Shown in pieces: positions 25,545 to 36,617 of a DNA stretch of 37,562 bases (positions are counted from its first letter, which is position 1; the number at the start of each line of letters is the position of its first letter). Both the position numbers and the translations under genes were made by a program. A model generated the notes under the pieces. That model saw only the letters and a program-made list of their open reading frames with translations. It was not told where the DNA came from and made no database searches. Origin of the DNA: a virus (lineage: Duplodnaviria > Heunggongvirae > Uroviricota > Caudoviricetes); IMG/VR virus record IMGVR_UViG_2534681673_000007, positions 1 to 37,562 of that record; one strand, written 5' to 3'.

Positions 25545-26540
25545 TTACGCCAGTACGCCTATTGCCAGCGCACGATCGATAAAACGAAATATCAGTTCCA
25601 GCTGGGAGCCATACTTCTCTTCAAATGCCACGGTATCCGCATGCAGCTCGTCGTGATGCTTTCTGCACAAAGGCAACACAAAGAGGTCATGCGCTTTTGT
25701 TCCCATTCCACCCTGACCGTGACCTATCAGGTGGTGGGGATCATCAGCGGGCTTTCCACAACATGCACACGGCTGTGTCTTAACCCAGCGCGTGTACTTT
25801 TCATTAACCCAGCGGCGACGTTTTGGGCGTAACATAAAAGACTCCGGCGACTCCGGATCCACTTTCAGCGCCAGCACCTTTTTCGCCTTATCCTGGATGA
25901 TGCTGGTGGCAGGAACCGAAGGCACAAGGTCACTTTCCCGGGTGACAGACGGCACAACAGGCTTCGGTAATCTCAGTGCCTTACGGGCTGCACTTTCCGG
26001 TAAGGCATCCGCCAGGTCATTACGAATCAGCCACCAGCACAGTTCCGGCATTGTCACAACGTGACTGTCATCAAAACCGAGATCCCGACGCACAACAGAC
26101 AACACCCAGCGGGCACAGTTATCCGTTGCCATTGATTCCAGCCGTTCCGTGAACTGATCGCGCAGCTGGTTATCGCAGTGCCAGCACAGACGGATTGCGC
26201 CCGGAGCGTGTCGCATTGTGGTCATGTTCTCGCTGTGCCAGTCGGAATGAGGCCACTGGCAGCCATTTTCACGAAGTAACCAGCTTTCAAGACATTCCAC
26301 GCCACCAGCACGACGGATCACTGCCTCATTGCGGAACACTGCCCGAACGGCAGGATCATCCGCCAGCGGTTGTGATGCCGCCGGAACGGCACCACTGGCG
26401 AAAGATGAATAACGTTCCGGCTCAGGCTCCAGCAGGACACGCCCCTGCATAAACAAGGGCATCAGCTCTGAACCAGGTCTGAACAATACGATCCCCATAC
26501 GCGGGGCAATTTCAGGGGTCAGTAGTGCTCTCACGGTCAC
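25545..26540 (-). CDS. DUF968-domain protein (YdfU-like)
   Basis: 331 aa. C-terminal CACCGKPADDPHHLIGHG...KAHD...HH motif block. Adjacent to Q, as in Qin-type prophages. Confidence 0.65.
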   Translation of the reverse strand: MTVRALLTPEIAPRMGIVLFRPGSELMPLFMQGRVLLEPEPERYSSFASGAVPAASQPLADDPAVRAVFRNEAVIRRAGGVECLESWLLRENGCQWPHSDWHSENMTTMRHAPGAIRLCWHCDNQLRDQFTERLESMATDNCARWVLSVVRRDLGFDDSHVVTMPELCWWLIRNDLADALPESAARKALRLPKPVVPSVTRESDLVPSVPATSIIQDKAKKVLALKVDPESPESFMLRPKRRRWVNEKYTRWVKTQPCACCGKPADDPHHLIGHGQGGMGTKAHDLFVLPLCRKHHDELHADTVAFEEKYGSQLELIFRFIDRALAIGVLA

Positions 26541-27497: not shown

Positions 27498-27505
27498 TGT
27501 AGTGG

Positions 27506-29005
<1,500 letters not shown>

Positions 29006-29332: not shown

Positions 29333-29826
29333 TAAGCCCCCACGTAATTCCCTGACAGATACCACTCTTCACCCGATGCAGCGCGCTTGCTGCTTTTCCG
29401 TAAGCACCGCTCACGACGCGCCAGAAAATTGTTTCGTTCTGGCTGGGAGTGGCTTTCACGGAATGCCGCCATCCACACGGTTGCAGCACGACGAAATAAG
29501 CCCCTGGACTCCAGTTCTTCCGCCTGGCGGGCCAGGCACAAAATCACCCGCGGGTCGTTAGTGCCGACATAGAAATTGCGCACAGGTCTGGTTTCACGAA
29601 CTGGTTGTGGTTCCGGTTCCTGCGCTCTCTCAGTCAGGCGCGGGAAATGTCTGCGTGTATCTCCTTCACAACGGTGAGCCACACGCCCACTCTGACGTAA
29701 CTTGCTTGCTGACTGCAGAACGCGCTGCCGTGAGTAACCAGCAAAAGCATCCGCAATGTCTCCGGAAGTACACCCCGGATGGGCTTCAATGAATTTCTGA
29801 ACGTCATTTAACAGACTCATGATCAC
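29332..29826 (-). CDS. Hypothetical protein of replication module (164 aa)
   Basis: ORF translationally coupled at both ends to the O-like gene upstream and the LexA-like gene downstream. No recognised motif. Confidence 0.45.
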   Translation of the reverse strand: MIMSLLNDVQKFIEAHPGCTSGDIADAFAGYSRQRVLQSASKLRQSGRVAHRCEGDTRRHFPRLTERAQEPEPQPVRETRPVRNFYVGTNDPRVILCLARQAEELESRGLFRRAATVWMAAFRESHSQPERNNFLARRERCLRKSSKRAASGEEWYLSGNYVGA

Positions 29827-30764
29827 CCCCTGAATCCTGCCGGGATCTGGCTGTAGTCCACGTTGTCGTAACTGGCTTTGAAGTACGGGTCTTCACGTTT
29901 TTCTGTGTGCGTGCTGACGGACGGCGATAAGCGCAGGGAAAGCTCATCCCATTTTTCCCGCAACTTCGACGGGCTGAGCACGTTACGGCACCAGAACGGA
30001 TCGCGGCTGACGCGGCTGTACATCTCGCAGATTTGTTTGTGAGTACGACCATCCTGCACACACATCAGGCGAATTTCGTTTGCCCAGGCTGTCCAGTTAG
30101 GTTCTTTGGGACGAACCACCTCGCCGTCACATTCGGCGGCCTGCTCGTACAGGGCGATGATTTTTTTCCAGAGCCACTGTGCGCAGGTCAAATCATCCTG
30201 CGTTCCCCACTGGCGCTTTTTAGGGCTGAATACAACCGCATCAGGATGGCGAGTTAAAAAATCCTGTTCAGCCGTCTGCGTGTCCGGTTGCGAAGCGTCC
30301 GGACGAGAAGGTTTTTTATCTGACGGATCATGTTTTGATTTTACTGACGGATCCCCGCCAGATTCTGACGGGTGAAAACCCGCTTTTTTGCCAGATTTCG
30401 ACGCATCAAATTTTGACGGGTCAGATTTTGATGCGTCAGATTTTGACGGGTCAGAATCTGACAGTTGAGAAAATGCCGCTGCCTGAAGCTTCGCAACGTT
30501 AAGCTGATAAACATTCGACGCATTGCGGTTACCCTGGCGACGCGCCTTACGCGTTAACCAGCCTTCTGCTTCCAGCCGTGCGATAGCCGTTCTGACGGTA
30601 CTCATCCCCGCGCCAATCTGACGGGCAATGGTTTCAATTGATGGCCAGCACACACCTTCGTCATTACTGAAATCAGCCAGGCGGGCCATAATTGCCACGC
30701 TGGATAACTTCATGCCTGATGCAGCGCAACCATCCCATACATAGCCGGTTAATTTAGTACTCAT
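29823..30764 (-). CDS. Replication initiation protein (O-like, N-terminal HTH, internal iteron-encoded repeat region)
   Basis: 313 aa. N-terminal winged-helix-like region. Central repeats SDPSKSDASKSDPSKFDASKS encoded by DNA iterons. Confidence 0.65.
   Translation of the reverse strand: MSTKLTGYVWDGCAASGMKLSSVAIMARLADFSNDEGVCWPSIETIARQIGAGMSTVRTAIARLEAEGWLTRKARRQGNRNASNVYQLNVAKLQAAAFSQLSDSDPSKSDASKSDPSKFDASKSGKKAGFHPSESGGDPSVKSKHDPSDKKPSRPDASQPDTQTAEQDFLTRHPDAVVFSPKKRQWGTQDDLTCAQWLWKKIIALYEQAAECDGEVVRPKEPNWTAWANEIRLMCVQDGRTHKQICEMYSRVSRDPFWCRNVLSPSKLREKWDELSLRLSPSVSTHTEKREDPYFKASYDNVDYSQIPAGFRG
30319..30455. repeat. Iteron array (about 7 copies of a roughly 15-bp unit, consensus near ATTTTGACGGGTCAG); candidate replication origin inside the initiator gene
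   Basis: Direct repeats read from the sequence: tctgacggatca, ttactgacggatc, ttctgacgggtga, tttcgacgcatca, ttttgacgggtcag, ttttgatgcgtcag, ttttgacgggtcag. Confidence 0.5.
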
Positions 30765-30773
30765 GACCGACCT

Positions 30774-31112
30774 CTATTTCCCTGAATTTACGACGAAACT
30801 GTTCGAGCGGACTGAAGCATTCATGCTCATAACCTTCGCGGAGGTAGATAACCCGTTGTGTTTCCGGCTCCCAACGAATGACTCTGACGGGCACTCCGTA
30901 GTGATCTTTGAACCAGCGGTTAACTTGTCGCAAAGGACTGTCTCCTTCTGCCGGTTGAAATCACCCACAGCCCACTCTGCAAAGCTGTGGGTTACAATTT
31001 CCCTGTCACCTGGTACATTCACTGCATAGCAATATTCCACCTTCGCTTTTCCACCCGGTACAGGAAGCGCAATCAGTTGCGAGCGACGGTAGTGTGTTGT
31101 TAAACTGTTCAT
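30774..31112 (-). CDS. Hypothetical protein (112 aa), translationally coupled in early-right operon
   Basis: ATGA overlap with the upstream gene's stop and ends 9 nt before the O-like start. Composition unremarkable. Confidence 0.4.
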
Positions 31113-31678
31113 GCGTTAGTTTCTCCACAACCAGAAGCAATCGACGCCACGACGCCCGGAGCTGCACACTCGCGGGCGTCATTACTTTCTGAAATGCAAA
31201 AAATTTTGTAGACAAGTGCTGCATGCTCCTGCAGCTTCGAAATTGAGAGATACAGCTCGTCGTTAATTGCTGTCTTCTCATGCGGTTCCACTACACCGTC
31301 TTCGATTGCTGAACGAATCTGTTTTGAATAACTGCCGATCTGTTCAATGACTTCCAGCAGACGCTGGTTAATATCGGCGTTGTCCACATCCTCGACGTCA
31401 GGAAGAGACACAAAGACGCCATTTGCAGACTGCGCCACAGCATCAGCAATGAAGTGAGTGCCACCAGCACGCTGTAAAACCATTGCCCATCCCAGCGGGA
31501 AAATCTGATCGCCATCTGCACGAAGGCGGTTGAATAAAGCGTTTTCTGTTACATCGAGCCAGTCAGCCGCTTCAGCGTAACCACCCGGCAACGCCGCGAT
31601 AGTTTTTCTGACAGCTTTCACGTACCACTCAGGCTGTTTTTCTATTTTCCAGTGATGCTTACCCACGATTAGCCTCAT
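31109..31678 (-). CDS. Hypothetical regulatory protein in the cII position (possibly YdaT-like)
   Basis: 189-aa ORF immediately downstream of the cro-like gene. Family assignment is tentative, from position and my recollection of YdaT-type proteins. Confidence 0.4.
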
Positions 31679-31709
31679 CGTTCTGTGGTTAAAAATTGAA
31701 AGTGTTCTG

Positions 31710-31910
31710 CTAATCTTTCGGATAGATATCCGGTCTTAAGTCAGATTTCGTAATTGCACCTGACGTGCATTGCTCAAGTTTTTTAGCCAGCACAAAACTG
31801 GCTTTTTTATAGCCATTGAAAACCAGCCGTAAGTAGCCAGGTGTTGAGCCAACTTTTCCGGCCAACTCGCCCTGCTGTTCTTTGGTTAAAGAGTCCCAAT
31901 ACGCTTTCAT
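31710..31910 (-). CDS. Cro-like HTH transcriptional regulator
   Basis: 66-aa product MKAYWDSLTKEQQGELAGKVGSTPGYLRLVFNGYKKASF... with an HTH. GGAGG 10 nt upstream. Divergent from the CI-like gene. The ORF track's longer 31710..32249 frame is not supported. Confidence 0.6.
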   Translation of the reverse strand: MKAYWDSLTKEQQGELAGKVGSTPGYLRLVFNGYKKASFVLAKKLEQCTSGAITKSDLRPDIYPKD

Positions 31911-31916
31911 ACAATA

Positions 31917-31933
31917 TGTACCTCCGGTGTACA
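31917..31933. promoter_or_regulatory. Operator-like site TGTACC-TCCGG-TGTACA, overlapping the cro RBS/promoter region
   Basis: Inverted repeat read from the sequence in the 90-bp cI/cro intergenic region. Confidence 0.45.
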
Positions 31934-31966
31934 TATTACATGATTGAAATGAACCTTCAAGATACT

Positions 31967-31983
31967 TGTACCTTAACGGTACA
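31967..31983. promoter_or_regulatory. Operator-like site TGTACC-TTAAC-GGTACA (perfect inverted repeat)
   Basis: Second copy of the same 17-bp architecture, 50 bp from the first, in the cI/cro intergenic region. Confidence 0.45.
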
Positions 31984-32000
31984 AGGGTTTTAATTTCGTT

Positions 32001-32674
32001 ATGAAAACAATCCATGACATCCGGCGGTCTAACGCCAGAAAACTGAGAGATGGTGTTGGCGGGAATTCTTCCTTTGCCACTATGATTGATCGCGAGCCAA
32101 CCCAGACCAGCAGGTTTATGGGAGATGGTGCTACTAAAAATATCGGTGACAGCATGGCACGACACATCGAAAAATGTTTCGACCTGCCTGTCGGATGGCT
32201 CGATCAAGAACACCAGACAACGAACATCACAAAAAACCTGATGTTTCAATCACTAATAAACAAATCACATTAGTCCCTGTCATATCATGGGTACAGGCCG
32301 GAGCATGGAAAGAAGTTGGATATTCTGAGGTTGATTTGAGCACAGCAGAAACGTATCCCTGCCCTGTACCCTGTGGGGAAATGACTTATATCTTGCGGGT
32401 GATAGGTGATTCAATGATTGATGAGTACCGCCCGGGAGACATGATTTTTGTCGATCCTGAAGTACCTGCCTGCCACGGTGACGACGTTATTGCATTGATG
32501 CACGATACAGGTGAAACCACCTTCAAAAGGTTGATAGAAGATGGGACACAGCGTTATCTCAAAGCGTTAAACCCAAACTGGCCTGAGCCTTACATTAAGA
32601 TCAACGGTAATTGCTCTATAATTGGTACAGTGATTTTCTCAGGAAAACCAAGAAGATACAAAATCAAAGCCTAA
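32001..32674 (+). pseudogene. CI-like repressor (N-terminal HTH plus C-terminal LexA-like S24 peptidase domain) with reading frame split at an A6 run (32231-32236)
   Basis: HTH in frame of ORF 32001..32273. S24 domain (PVISWVQAGAW...GDSM...FKRL) in frame of ORF 32174..32674. One extra A would fuse them as ...NITKKPDVSITNKQITLVPVISW... Confidence 0.6.
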
Positions 32675-32686
32675 TCAATGTTTATG

Positions 32687-32710
32687 AACCTGCTTCGGCA
32701 GGTTTTTTAT
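32687..32710 (+). terminator. Rho-independent terminator after the repressor gene (AACCUGC-UUCG-GCAGGUU plus UUUUUUAU)
   Basis: 7-bp stem with UUCG tetraloop and U-tract, 13 nt after the repressor stop. Confidence 0.65.
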
Positions 32711-32712
32711 AC

Positions 32713-32740
32713 TTGACAATGTACCTTTGAGATACATAAT
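32713..32740 (+). promoter_or_regulatory. pL-like early promoter (TTGACA, 16-bp spacer, CATAAT) overlapped by operator-like site TGTACC-TTTGA-GATACA (32720-32736)
   Basis: Consensus -35 and near-consensus -10 read directly. Third copy of the TGTACC-N5-GGTACA motif sits in the spacer. Confidence 0.5.
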
Positions 32741-32850
32741 GTACCCAAGCGAAACAACGAACAGGCAGGACGCCCACGAAGTAGCCGCCTGGGGCATATG
32801 AAGTCCAGGATGATTCGTTAGCAACAAAAAAGCGCCCTACAGGACGCTTA

Positions 32851-32862
32851 GCTCTTTAACAA
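32851..32862 (+). promoter_or_regulatory. boxA-like element GCTCTTTAACAA in the early-left leader
   Basis: 11 to 12 of 12 match to the rrn/lambdoid boxA consensus as I recall it; about 50 nt upstream of the first early-left gene. Confidence 0.3.
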
Positions 32863-32907
32863 TCTGGTCCCCTTCAACAAGTAACTGATAACTTGAGGAG
32901 GTGTGAA

Positions 32908-33114
32908 ATGCACAAAACAGAACCCAAAATCGTCGCGCCTGGCTACACAGATGAGGAAATTTATGAGTGGATGACAAAGAAGCTGGCAGCTATAAACCAG
33001 CTTCGTGAATTGCGGTCTTATCGACAGGAAACAATAGGCTCCTTAAAAAAACTGGATCAGGAAATCACGGTTTTATCACAGGATGCTACTTTAGATATTG
33101 TGCAGACAAATTAG
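32908..33114 (+). CDS. Hypothetical small protein (68 aa), first gene of early-left operon
   Basis: ATG at 32908 with GAGGAGG 6 nt upstream. Predicted helical/coiled-coil (KKLAAINQLRELRSYRQETIGSLKKLDQEI). Confidence 0.5.
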   Translation: MHKTEPKIVAPGYTDEEIYEWMTKKLAAINQLRELRSYRQETIGSLKKLDQEITVLSQDATLDIVQTN

Positions 33115-33520
33115 GATCCCATTCATTTTCGTCAAAATCATCAAAGTGATGAATTTGTGATCTCCAGTCTCGATAATCTAAAAATTTCTGGGCGGTTACG
33201 CTTATTTTATCAAGTGTGAGTTCATCCTGAATTGAAAGAAGAAGTTCATCAAATTTCATCTCATTAATCTGTTTTGGCATCCAGTGATGCTTCATCAGAA
33301 TAAGGTGAACCAGAGCCTTTTTCCCATTCAACTGATTATAGGGAGTGCCGAATTTCTTCCGGTGCTCATGTAAGACAAGGTCTAGAAGAGTAAGTAATGT
33401 TGCCCTTGATTCCACTTTGCTTATTTCGACTGATGACACTACCCCACTGATTTCAATGCCCCGATACTTTCCAACATTTTCACAGTGGGATTTGTACAGC
33501 GTATAGATATTACCGGACAT
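33086..33520 (-). CDS. Unknown protein (144 aa) encoded antisense to the early-left operon; lower GC
   Basis: ATG at 33520 with AAGGA 7 nt upstream. 3' end converges on and overlaps the end of the 68-aa gene. No recognised motif. Confidence 0.55.
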   Translation of the reverse strand: MSGNIYTLYKSHCENVGKYRGIEISGVVSSVEISKVESRATLLTLLDLVLHEHRKKFGTPYNQLNGKKALVHLILMKHHWMPKQINEMKFDELLLSIQDELTLDKISVTAQKFLDYRDWRSQIHHFDDFDENEWDPNLSAQYLK

Positions 33521-35226: not shown

Positions 35227-35436
35227 ATGGCAAAACTAATGAAAGCGAGCCAATGGGGACGCCGTGAATTCTCTAATGGCTCAATTCCTGACAACCGAAC
35301 GATAAAACGCTGGGTCGAGAACGGTCTGCTCATGGGGCGTATCGTGGACGGTTCTGTTTTTGTCTGCGAAACAGAAAAATGGGGAGTCGACTCAATGGTT
35401 AGTCAAGCTGTTCGCAAGTTAATAAATGAGGGGTGA
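35227..35436 (+). CDS. xis: Excisionase-like protein
   Basis: 69-aa product, ATG at 35227 with GGAG upstream. Overlaps the integrase start. Motif TIKRWVENGLLMGRIVDGSVFV resembles excisionase-type wHTH. Confidence 0.6.
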   Translation: MAKLMKASQWGRREFSNGSIPDNRTIKRWVENGLLMGRIVDGSVFVCETEKWGVDSMVSQAVRKLINEG

Positions 35437-36617
35437 CCATGGCGGCAAGGCCACGTAAAAAAGAATACAGACATCTTCCTGATTATCTGATTTTTGATAA
35501 AGATCGAGGTGTTTATAAATTCACACTTATTACCGGAAAGAAGAAAAATATAGGTAAGGATAGGGCAATAGCCATTGCAATCGCCAGAGAGTACAACCTG
35601 AGGATGCGACCAGAATTATCTCCATCAGTAGATAATCTTATTAGAGAATCTGGCGGTGTTATCGGAGAAGCAAAACCATTTGCTGAACATGTTGATCACA
35701 TAATGGCCCGAATTATCGAAGACGAACGTCCTTCCCAGAGCACCTTAGATGACTGGAAAAATGACGCTCTACGCGTAAAAGCGTTTTTCGTAAATGTTCC
35801 GGCATGCGATATCGAACTTGAACACGTTAATACCTACATCAACAAATATCATGCCAGCGCATCCGCAAATGTGCAGAACAGAAAGGTCAGCTTTCTTAAA
35901 AAGTTGTTCTCTTATGCGGTCGATGAATCACTAATGCTGGATAACCCGGCCATCAGAAAAAAAATGCGTAGGACTGATGAGAAGAAAAGACGGCGCCTGT
36001 CACTCGAGCATTTTATAGCTATCAGGCAGGCCGCTGCACCATGGTTAAGAACAGCAATGGACCTAGCATTGCAGACTACACATGCACGACTCGAAGTATC
36101 GCGAATCCGTTACTCAATTCGCGAACCTAAAGACGGTATATGTGGATGTGTCTGGTTCGAACAACCACAAAATGGCATATATGGGACGCTTTACATCCAC
36201 AGGCAAAAAGTGCAACAAAAAGAGGCGTCACACGTTGCAATACCAATTGGTGAAGAGTTGAAACGGATAATTGACGATAGCCGAGATAATGTGGCCAGTC
36301 CGTTTGTCGTTCACAGGATCCCAGAACGCCAAGTTAAACGCAGCAAAGAGGTTTCACATCCTACTCAAGTTGCACCGGACTATTTGAGTAGGTCGTTTTC
36401 AGCTACACGGGACAAACTAGGTTTATGCGACAATCTACCAATGGATGAAAGACCAACCTTTCACGAAATTCGAGCACTAGCAGCGCATCTATTCGATCAG
36501 CAGGGTATCGATCCACAAGGACGAATGGCGCACAGCGATGCGAAGTCAACCAAGATCTACACGCAAAATCATATAGATTGGGTTGTCGTTCCCCATGGAG
36601 AAATTAAAGCCAGCTAA
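35433..36617 (+). CDS. int: Tyrosine integrase (lambda Int family)
   Basis: 394 aa. N-terminal arm-binding region similar to lambda Int (HLPDYL...GKDRAIAIAIA). C-terminal catalytic region with PTFHEIRAL...AHSDAKSTKIYTQ (R/H/R/Y pattern). Confidence 0.9.
   Translation: MTMAARPRKKEYRHLPDYLIFDKDRGVYKFTLITGKKKNIGKDRAIAIAIAREYNLRMRPELSPSVDNLIRESGGVIGEAKPFAEHVDHIMARIIEDERPSQSTLDDWKNDALRVKAFFVNVPACDIELEHVNTYINKYHASASANVQNRKVSFLKKLFSYAVDESLMLDNPAIRKKMRRTDEKKRRRLSLEHFIAIRQAAAPWLRTAMDLALQTTHARLEVSRIRYSIREPKDGICGCVWFEQPQNGIYGTLYIHRQKVQQKEASHVAIPIGEELKRIIDDSRDNVASPFVVHRIPERQVKRSKEVSHPTQVAPDYLSRSFSATRDKLGLCDNLPMDERPTFHEIRALAAHLFDQQGIDPQGRMAHSDAKSTKIYTQNHIDWVVVPHGEIKAS

Follow-up and report, generated by a model that had tools for sequence, protein, structure and literature searches.

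Whether the repeats that flank the repressor gene of this phage are the operators of its immunity switch, and to which immunity type such a switch would belong, are the questions addressed here. A sequence-only reading had singled out three copies of a 17-bp motif, TGTACC-N5-GGTACA, two of them between cI and cro and the third at a PL-like promoter. The window, by which we mean the whole stretch of 37,562 nucleotides that was analysed, is outside the immunity region an SfV-like myovirus prophage. The comparisons described below, which are drawn from sequence, make it highly likely that the repeats act as operators of a lambda-type switch of the e14/SfV/SfIV immunity class. The dyads are very probably repressor-binding sites, of which there would be five in all.

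The genes around the repeats can be assigned by similarity. Over 2.2 kb around the switch the window shares 97.6% identity with Shigella phage SfIV and 95% with SfV, and in the matching 2.2 kb the SfIV and SfV annotations give cI, cro and downstream regulators. The gene order is that of the e14 prophage of E. coli K-12, with ymfK, ymfT, ymfL and ymfM of 675, 201, 558 and 339 bp. The cI gene (a YmfK homologue, 32001..32674, plus strand) and cro (31710..31910, minus strand) are divergent, with their ATG codons at 32001 and 31910 respectively, and are separated by the short gap (90 bp) found in lambdoid CI/Cro switches; two of the three repeats indeed lie in this gap, as had been proposed. The cro product, a YmfT/CroE homologue of 66 aa, is an HTH protein with weak matches to YdaS_toxin and HTH_3. 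The protein encoded after cro belongs to the YmfL family and is related to the 186 CII protein CP76, and the feature list of the region holds minus-strand entries at 31109-31678 and 30774-31112. The intact cI protein of SfIV is identical to YmfK of e14 (224 of 224 residues), the 90 bp between ymfK and ymfT in e14 are base-for-base the same as in the window, and the OL1 site described below is the same too. Sharing both repressor and operator DNA, the locus is of the e14/SfV (YmfK-YmfT) immunity type.

The whole 37.5-kb window was searched for TGTACC-N5-GGTACA with mismatches tolerated. At no more than one mismatch there were three matches against 0.03 expected, none of 100 shuffled sequences gave three, and the other 36.7 kb of the window contained none, so that the density check suggested by the earlier reading speaks against chance. 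Only the copy at 31967..31983 (OR3-like operator, TGTACCTTAACGGTACA) is a perfect dyad. The OR1-like operator (TGTACCTCCGGTGTACA, 31917..31933) and the OL1 operator (TGTACCTTTGAGATACA, 32720..32736) each carry one mismatch in the right half, and of the three proposed copies the coordinates were therefore correct, but the perfect consensus was not for these two. At no more than three mismatches the window gave 12 matches against 10.3 expected, six of which fall within 31917-32756. Two weaker sites complete the set: a putative OR2-like operator with three mismatches (TGAACCTTCAAGATACT, 31950..31966) and the weak operator OL2 with two (TGTACCCAAGCGAAACA, 32740..32756). None of the five sites is assigned to a strand. 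The likeness to the OR/OL arrangement of lambda, with a different operator sequence, was thus correct at its core, and the number of sites becomes five (three in OR and two in OL) instead of three.

A position weight matrix trained solely on sites from other genera placed its six top matches of the 37.5-kb window inside 31917-32756. OR1, OR3 and OL1 scored between 20.8 and 23.3, whereas the best scores of shuffled sequences had a median of 8.5 and a 95th percentile of 17.7. Against the same shuffles, neither OL2 (13.9) nor OR2 (9.2) is individually significant. Elsewhere in the window the matrix gave no credible further operator, the surroundings of int, Q and the KilA-N gene included. Half-site hexamers were not enriched over the whole window (14 and 9 copies against 9.9 and 8.3 expected). 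Lone half-sites (GGTACA or TGTACC) were also observed in and around the immunity genes, at 31012, 31057, 32290, 32365 and 32624, and 10 of the 23 half-site copies of the window fall in 31000-32760; at 32365-32381 there is a full site with two mismatches within cI. Chance or coding constraint may account for these copies.

The promoters can be placed with respect to these sites. The presumed cro promoter PR (31933..31960, minus strand), which was read from the sequence, has a -35 hexamer TTGAAG at 31960-31955, a spacer of 16 nt and a -10 hexamer TAATAT at 31938-31933. The presumed cI promoter PRM (31965..31993, plus strand) consists of TTGTAC, a spacer of 17 nt and TTTAAT, which ends 6 nt before the cI ATG. 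Both fell below the threshold of a consensus promoter scan. In 25 distinct relatives the TTG of the PR -35 and the A-11 and T-7 of its -10 are kept, and in relatives a TnTAAT hexamer is found 6 nt (rarely 7-9 nt) 5' of the cI ATG, with no Shine-Dalgarno sequence. The position of this hexamer and the absence of a ribosome-binding site suggest that the cI mRNA is leaderless, as in lambda. The PL-like promoter (32713..32740, plus strand), with TTGACA at 32713-18, a spacer of 16 nt and CATAAT at 32735-40, had an 11/12 match to sigma-70 in the promoter scan, and both hexamers are invariant among relatives. Upstream of it, 3' of cI, the terminator scan detected an intrinsic terminator (32686..32705, plus strand), and the SfV record also annotates a terminator.

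OR1 reaches from the final base of the presumed PR -10 to about +12. Within it lies the cro Shine-Dalgarno sequence (CCTCC on the plus strand, GGAGG on the minus strand), and this accounts for the conservation of the first three bases (TCC) of the OR1 centre. OR2 is centred on the PR -35 and lies at -43 of PRM, and it directly abuts OR3, with 17 bp from centre to centre and no gap. OR3 overlaps the -35 and the spacer of PRM. On the other side of cI, OL1 fills the PL spacer and the start of the -10; the third copy had been placed in the spacer, where it is, and it also covers the first two bases of the -10. The final T of the PL -10 is the first base of OL2, which is the register of OR1 at PR, and the OL2 centre is 20 bp from that of OL1. 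Partly symmetric operators of about 17 bp overlapping PR, PRM and PL are a hallmark of lambdoid CI/Cro switches; here the overlap with PL rests on the promoter scan, and that with PR and PRM on conserved, unmapped hexamers.

The pattern of variation was analyzed at two scales. Among 85 near-identical loci encoding identical cI, 2 of 36 columns vary in the half-sites of the three strong sites, as against 9 of 15 in their centres (Fisher p = 7e-5). The half-sites of OL1 have zero nucleotide diversity and five of its five central bases vary, and the OR1 half-sites are invariant except at position 13. In the same loci, the centres of OL1 and OL2 (32726-32730 and 32746-32750) show a diversity of about 0.165-0.17, roughly five times the 0.034 of four-fold degenerate sites of cI and cro. 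We make no claim of selection on these centres, since they comprise only 10 columns and the adjacent downstream non-operator column is equally variable.

The cross-genus set comprised 31 loci with this repressor type, four of them in E. coli and 27 spread over about 20 other genera (Klebsiella to Halomonas), in which cI is 43-88% identical and the layout is the same. The search of related phages that the sequence-only reading had called for thus found the sites kept at the same spacing in 27 distant loci. OR1 is located mostly at -84/-85 from the cI ATG (-87/-88 in six loci), the starts of OR1 and OR3 are 50 bp apart throughout, and OR2 starts 33 bp after OR1 and 17 bp 5' of OR3 (16 bp in four Halomonadaceae loci). 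Behind the cI terminator of the relatives follow TTGACA, an A, the dyad, TAA and the second site, an arrangement absent from those four Halomonadaceae loci, and the OL1-OL2 spacing is 20 bp across genera. In this set OR3 has an information content of 1.84 bits per position in the half-sites and 0.34 in the centre, and OL1 of 1.92 and 0.46 respectively, and the cross-genus consensus reads TGTACC-N5-G(G/A)TACA. In most other genera OL1 is a perfect dyad. OR2 and OL2, though weak in the window, are positionally conserved: OL2 keeps its left half and its position, and OR2 reads TGAACC-NNCAA-GGTACT in relatives (two mismatches), has TGTACC in Erwinia and Proteus, and in Rosenbergiella is itself a perfect dyad, AGTTCC-TTCAA-GGAACT.

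The sites also follow the repressor. In 80 homologue loci, with sites counted at no more than one mismatch, the 31 loci whose repressor has the helix R[ED][PAS]TQxSR contained 90 sites in 110 kb, versus none in 169 kb of the 49 loci with distant S24 repressors that do not have this helix.

The repressor of this type has an N-terminal HTH for DNA binding and a C-terminal, LexA-like S24 domain for self-cleavage and oligomerisation, as in lambdoid switches, and in the window the two are split by a frameshift. The C-terminal domain of the intact SfIV cI matches Peptidase_S24 (PF00717, E 1.5e-26) and the C-terminal domain of lambda cI (E 2e-9). Intact cI has Ala100-Gly101, Ser138 and Lys176, the last two of which are nearly invariant among homologues. 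Pfam models gave no match to the N-terminal domain, and an AlphaFold model of residues 1-77 of the window cI (pLDDT 87) predicts a lambda-repressor-like HTH of four to five helices. The gene of the window is disrupted by an A6 run at 32231-32236 in place of A7, as set by alignment with SfV, SfIV and e14, with the deletion falling in the linker between the cI domains. It leaves a 90-aa N-terminal ORF (32001-32273) and a separate ORF for the C-terminal S24 peptidase. With one base deleted from the A run, no full repressor can be made from this copy. The prediction that the operators define the immunity specificity of this phage therefore holds for the e14/SfV/SfIV immunity type, but not for a repressor supplied by this copy.

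The A6 allele occurs in only one of about 505 IMG/VR contigs with this cI (L164). Over the 4.1 kb around the switch this contig matches the window at 98.6% but is not identical to it, and an A5 variant is present among database proteins (P0050). Either a genuine slippage mutation or a sequencing error in the homopolymer may account for the allele; in the window, the T-run that follows the terminator is likewise short by one base. Provided that the deletion is real, silencing would need the truncated DNA-binding fragment or an e14-type repressor in trans, and given such a repressor a prophage with a broken cI could stay silent.

Taken together, these features suggest how the switch would work. 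A cI (YmfK) dimer would read the two 6-bp half-sites of the 17-bp TGTACC-N5-G(G/A)TACA element, the central 5 bp not being directly read. Repressor at OR1 and OR2 would shut PR, and repressor at OL1 and OL2 would occlude PL, which lies beyond the cI terminator and points away from cI. The position of OR3 over the PRM -35 and spacer would allow negative autoregulation or a Cro-mediated shut-off of PRM; by analogy with lambda, the small Cro protein, YmfT, probably shares the operators with cI. Lambda cI activates PRM from a position near -43, and OR2 is situated where the repressor could do so here. RecA-stimulated cleavage at Ala100-Gly101 would relieve repression. Two features are unlike lambda, namely that OR2 abuts OR3 and that the best dyad is at OR3, over the repressor's own promoter and not over PR, so that the affinity hierarchy may differ. 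For this scheme we infer the binding protein, the affinity order, PRM activation, cooperativity and OR-OL looping.

The PL transcript carries several further elements. Directly after OL2 there is an approximately 65-nt conserved element (32757-32821, plus strand), common to several genera, with stems at 32777-32780/32814-32817 and 32788-32792/32805-32809. The inner stem shows compensatory double changes at three pairs (UA/CG/GC/AU, GC/CG/GU and GC/UA/AU), and the G-U pairs favour the plus strand. A mosaic junction follows ATGATTCG at this element, which is present in one copy per prophage. An Rfam search of 31600-33200 gave no match, a second copy of the PL leader was not detected in the PR operon with a covariance model, and the single-sequence fold of the leader had a z of -0.15. 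The element is possibly a cis-acting leader or antitermination RNA. Further along, the stretch 32830-32862 holds a hairpin, AAGCGCCCTACAGGACGCTT, and after it GCTCTTTAACAA; in related loci a mosaic junction bounds this stretch on either side. GCTCTTTAACAA (32851-32862) corresponds perfectly to the rrn-type boxA, of which the window has no second copy. Read on the minus strand, the hairpin has the form of an intrinsic terminator with a T-run. Transcription from PL would first reach a 68-aa ORF (32908-33114, plus strand) with a strong Shine-Dalgarno sequence, GAGGAGG. Its 3' end is overlapped by the gene of an ECs1072-family phage-associated protein (33086-33520, minus strand), which is opposed to PL and has a terminator-like hairpin of its own at 33004-32979.

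On a different reading, the switch is lambda-like only superficially, with inverted affinities, an antitermination mechanism in the PL leader that does not depend on N, and tuning through the OL centres; we regard this combination as rather unlikely. OR2 abuts OR3 without a gap, so that binding at both may be mutually exclusive, and the strongest dyads lie over PRM and inside PL, so that the order of affinities may be inverted relative to lambda. By analogy with HK022 put or rrn leaders, the PL leader could support processive antitermination independent of an N protein, which, if true, would explain how these phages do without N. The diversity of the OL centres could reflect selection tuning repression among co-resident homoimmune prophages.

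It is improbable that a protein different from cI occupies the sites, whether Cro (YmfT) by itself, YmfL with its likeness to 186 CII, or a host factor, for example LexA. In all informative loci cI is inherited together with cro and ymfL, so that the co-occurrence of the sites with this repressor type does not discriminate between these proteins; because cI and cro always travel together, the comparative data cannot tell apart their targets. Previous work has also grouped e14 genes with SOS genes, sulA and recN among them, in one co-regulated set, the YmfT iModulon. Against another binder stands the presence of the 6-5-6 dyad at both OR and OL beside a gene for an HTH and S24 repressor, the classic cI arrangement. 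Activators of the CII type recognise direct repeats at -35 and do not use dyads over -10 and +1. LexA was considered as a candidate and rejected: its box is CTGT-N8-ACAG, and the sites, reading (A/T)TGTACC-N5-GGTACA, have no CTG...CAG frame. Binding of Cro to the same sites belongs to the repressor-operator model and is not an alternative to it.

It is very improbable that the dyads work as hairpins in RNA or DNA, such as terminators or attenuators, rather than as protein sites. The terminator scan did pick up a stem-loop at 31965-31985 followed by GGTTTTAATT, but the T-tract after 31985 is the conserved PRM -10. Across genera the stem keeps its sequence, without compensatory changes, and variation is confined to the loop; conservation of half-site sequence in place of pairing potential argues against a role as RNA. 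Furthermore, four of the five sites are imperfect dyads, which would fold poorly, and the sites overlie promoter hexamers. A chance resemblance within AT-rich intergenic DNA, although the motif is short and a perfect-scoring matrix site did arise in 1 of 100 mononucleotide shuffles, is effectively refuted by three strong sites inside 820 bp against 0.03 expected for the whole window, by positions kept across about 20 genera and by the division of 90 versus 0 sites according to repressor type.

The repressor-operator model thus preferred concerns a module that is already known, annotated and very common, and the operator itself is not new. SfV GenBank annotates a "putative operator region" at 26377..26445, which corresponds without gaps to 31916-31984 of the window, exactly OR1 through OR3; with the region already marked in this way, the present analysis adds little as a discovery. 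Mehta, Casjens and Krishnaswamy are reported, in the abstract of their paper (BMC Microbiol 2004; 4:4), to have identified the e14 repressor, Cro and their binding sites through comparison with SfV. SfIV encodes a cI and a Cro that are identical to those of SfV (PMC3851460). Other papers describe YmfK as a putative SOS-sensitive repressor without giving its sites, and a Reg-Seq preprint includes ymfT among its targets, its main text not describing the promoter. In the accessible papers on the motif and on ymfK/ymfT we found no operator mapping, binding, footprinting or transcription-start data. The mEpimmI phages were considered and rejected, as they belong to a different repressor group.

Some part of the ymfK-ymfT module was detected in 2164 of 5426 complete E. 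coli genomes (about 40%), and at least 80% of a 1.3-kb module query in 1315 complete E. coli genomes. The module is also present in 504 IMG/VR contigs, and SfV, SfIV, phage cdtI and Stx2c-converting phages carry it. There are up to four copies per E. coli genome, so co-resident homoimmune prophages must be frequent. The operators would therefore decide cross-repression among such prophages and their response to SOS induction, which brings expression of the YmfM division inhibitor.

Several features elsewhere in the window were observed. Inside the replication-protein gene (29823-30764, minus strand) a 15-bp unit (CAGATTTTGACGGGT) is repeated 4.3 times at 30392-30455; by analogy with lambda O, it looks like an iteron array forming an origin within the initiator gene. 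An ORF for an IS3-family transposase with rve domains (27506-28252, minus strand) is located within a segment of about 27499-28755. This segment is absent from L164, which is otherwise 97-99% identical, indicating an IS insertion in the early-right region. A full-length match to the Rfam family isrC, an Hfq-binding sRNA, was found at 28565-28687 (minus strand, 150 bits, E 7.5e-37). On the plus strand, the window also encodes a protein with a GIY-YIG (LEM-3-like) nuclease domain (1-774), an Acyl_transf_3 protein (1323-2390), which is possibly an O-antigen acetyltransferase serving as serotype-conversion cargo, and a lambda-type integrase (35433-36617). No tRNA genes were found in the window.

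The closest known systems are e14, SfV and SfIV, which share with the window the same cI in its intact form, the operator DNA, and the order and lengths of the genes. The window differs from all three in the one-base deletion of the A7 run. The OL2 centre and the DNA past the PL leader differ as well, owing to the mosaic nature of the region, and the window is otherwise a full-length SfV-like myovirus prophage, whereas e14 is a remnant. For the predicted N-terminal domain of cI the closest solved structure is Rep of Salmonella phage SPC32H (PDB 5D50; Foldseek E 2e-4, TM 0.81-0.83, 34-35% identity; sequence E 0.002), followed by the folds of 434, P22 c2, controller proteins and HigA/HipB. Going by the title of its entry, Rep is reportedly inactivated by an antirepressor and not by S24 self-cleavage. 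The Stx phage 933W is said by Tyler et al. (2004) to have a lambdoid switch with three OR but only two OL sites; the window has the same numbers of sites, but its operator sequence and repressor are unrelated to those of 933W.

With lambda, and also with 434 and P22, the window shares divergent cI and cro genes, 17-bp partial dyads and three OR sites over PR and PRM. As in lambda, the OL set lies at a promoter beyond cI which reads in the same direction as cI, the C-terminal domain of cI is homologous, the cI mRNA is probably leaderless and the middle site is near -43 of PRM. In contrast to lambda, the operator sequence is different, the N-terminal domain has no Pfam HTH match, and phages SfIV, SfII and SfV have no N, cII or cIII (PMC3851460), the 186-CII-like YmfL being present instead. 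The OR2 and OR3 centres are 17 bp apart in the window as compared to 23-24 bp in lambda, and OR1 lies over +1 and the ribosome-binding site, not over the -10. Finally, unlike in lambda, the best dyad of the window occupies the OR3 position, and its OL contains two sites.
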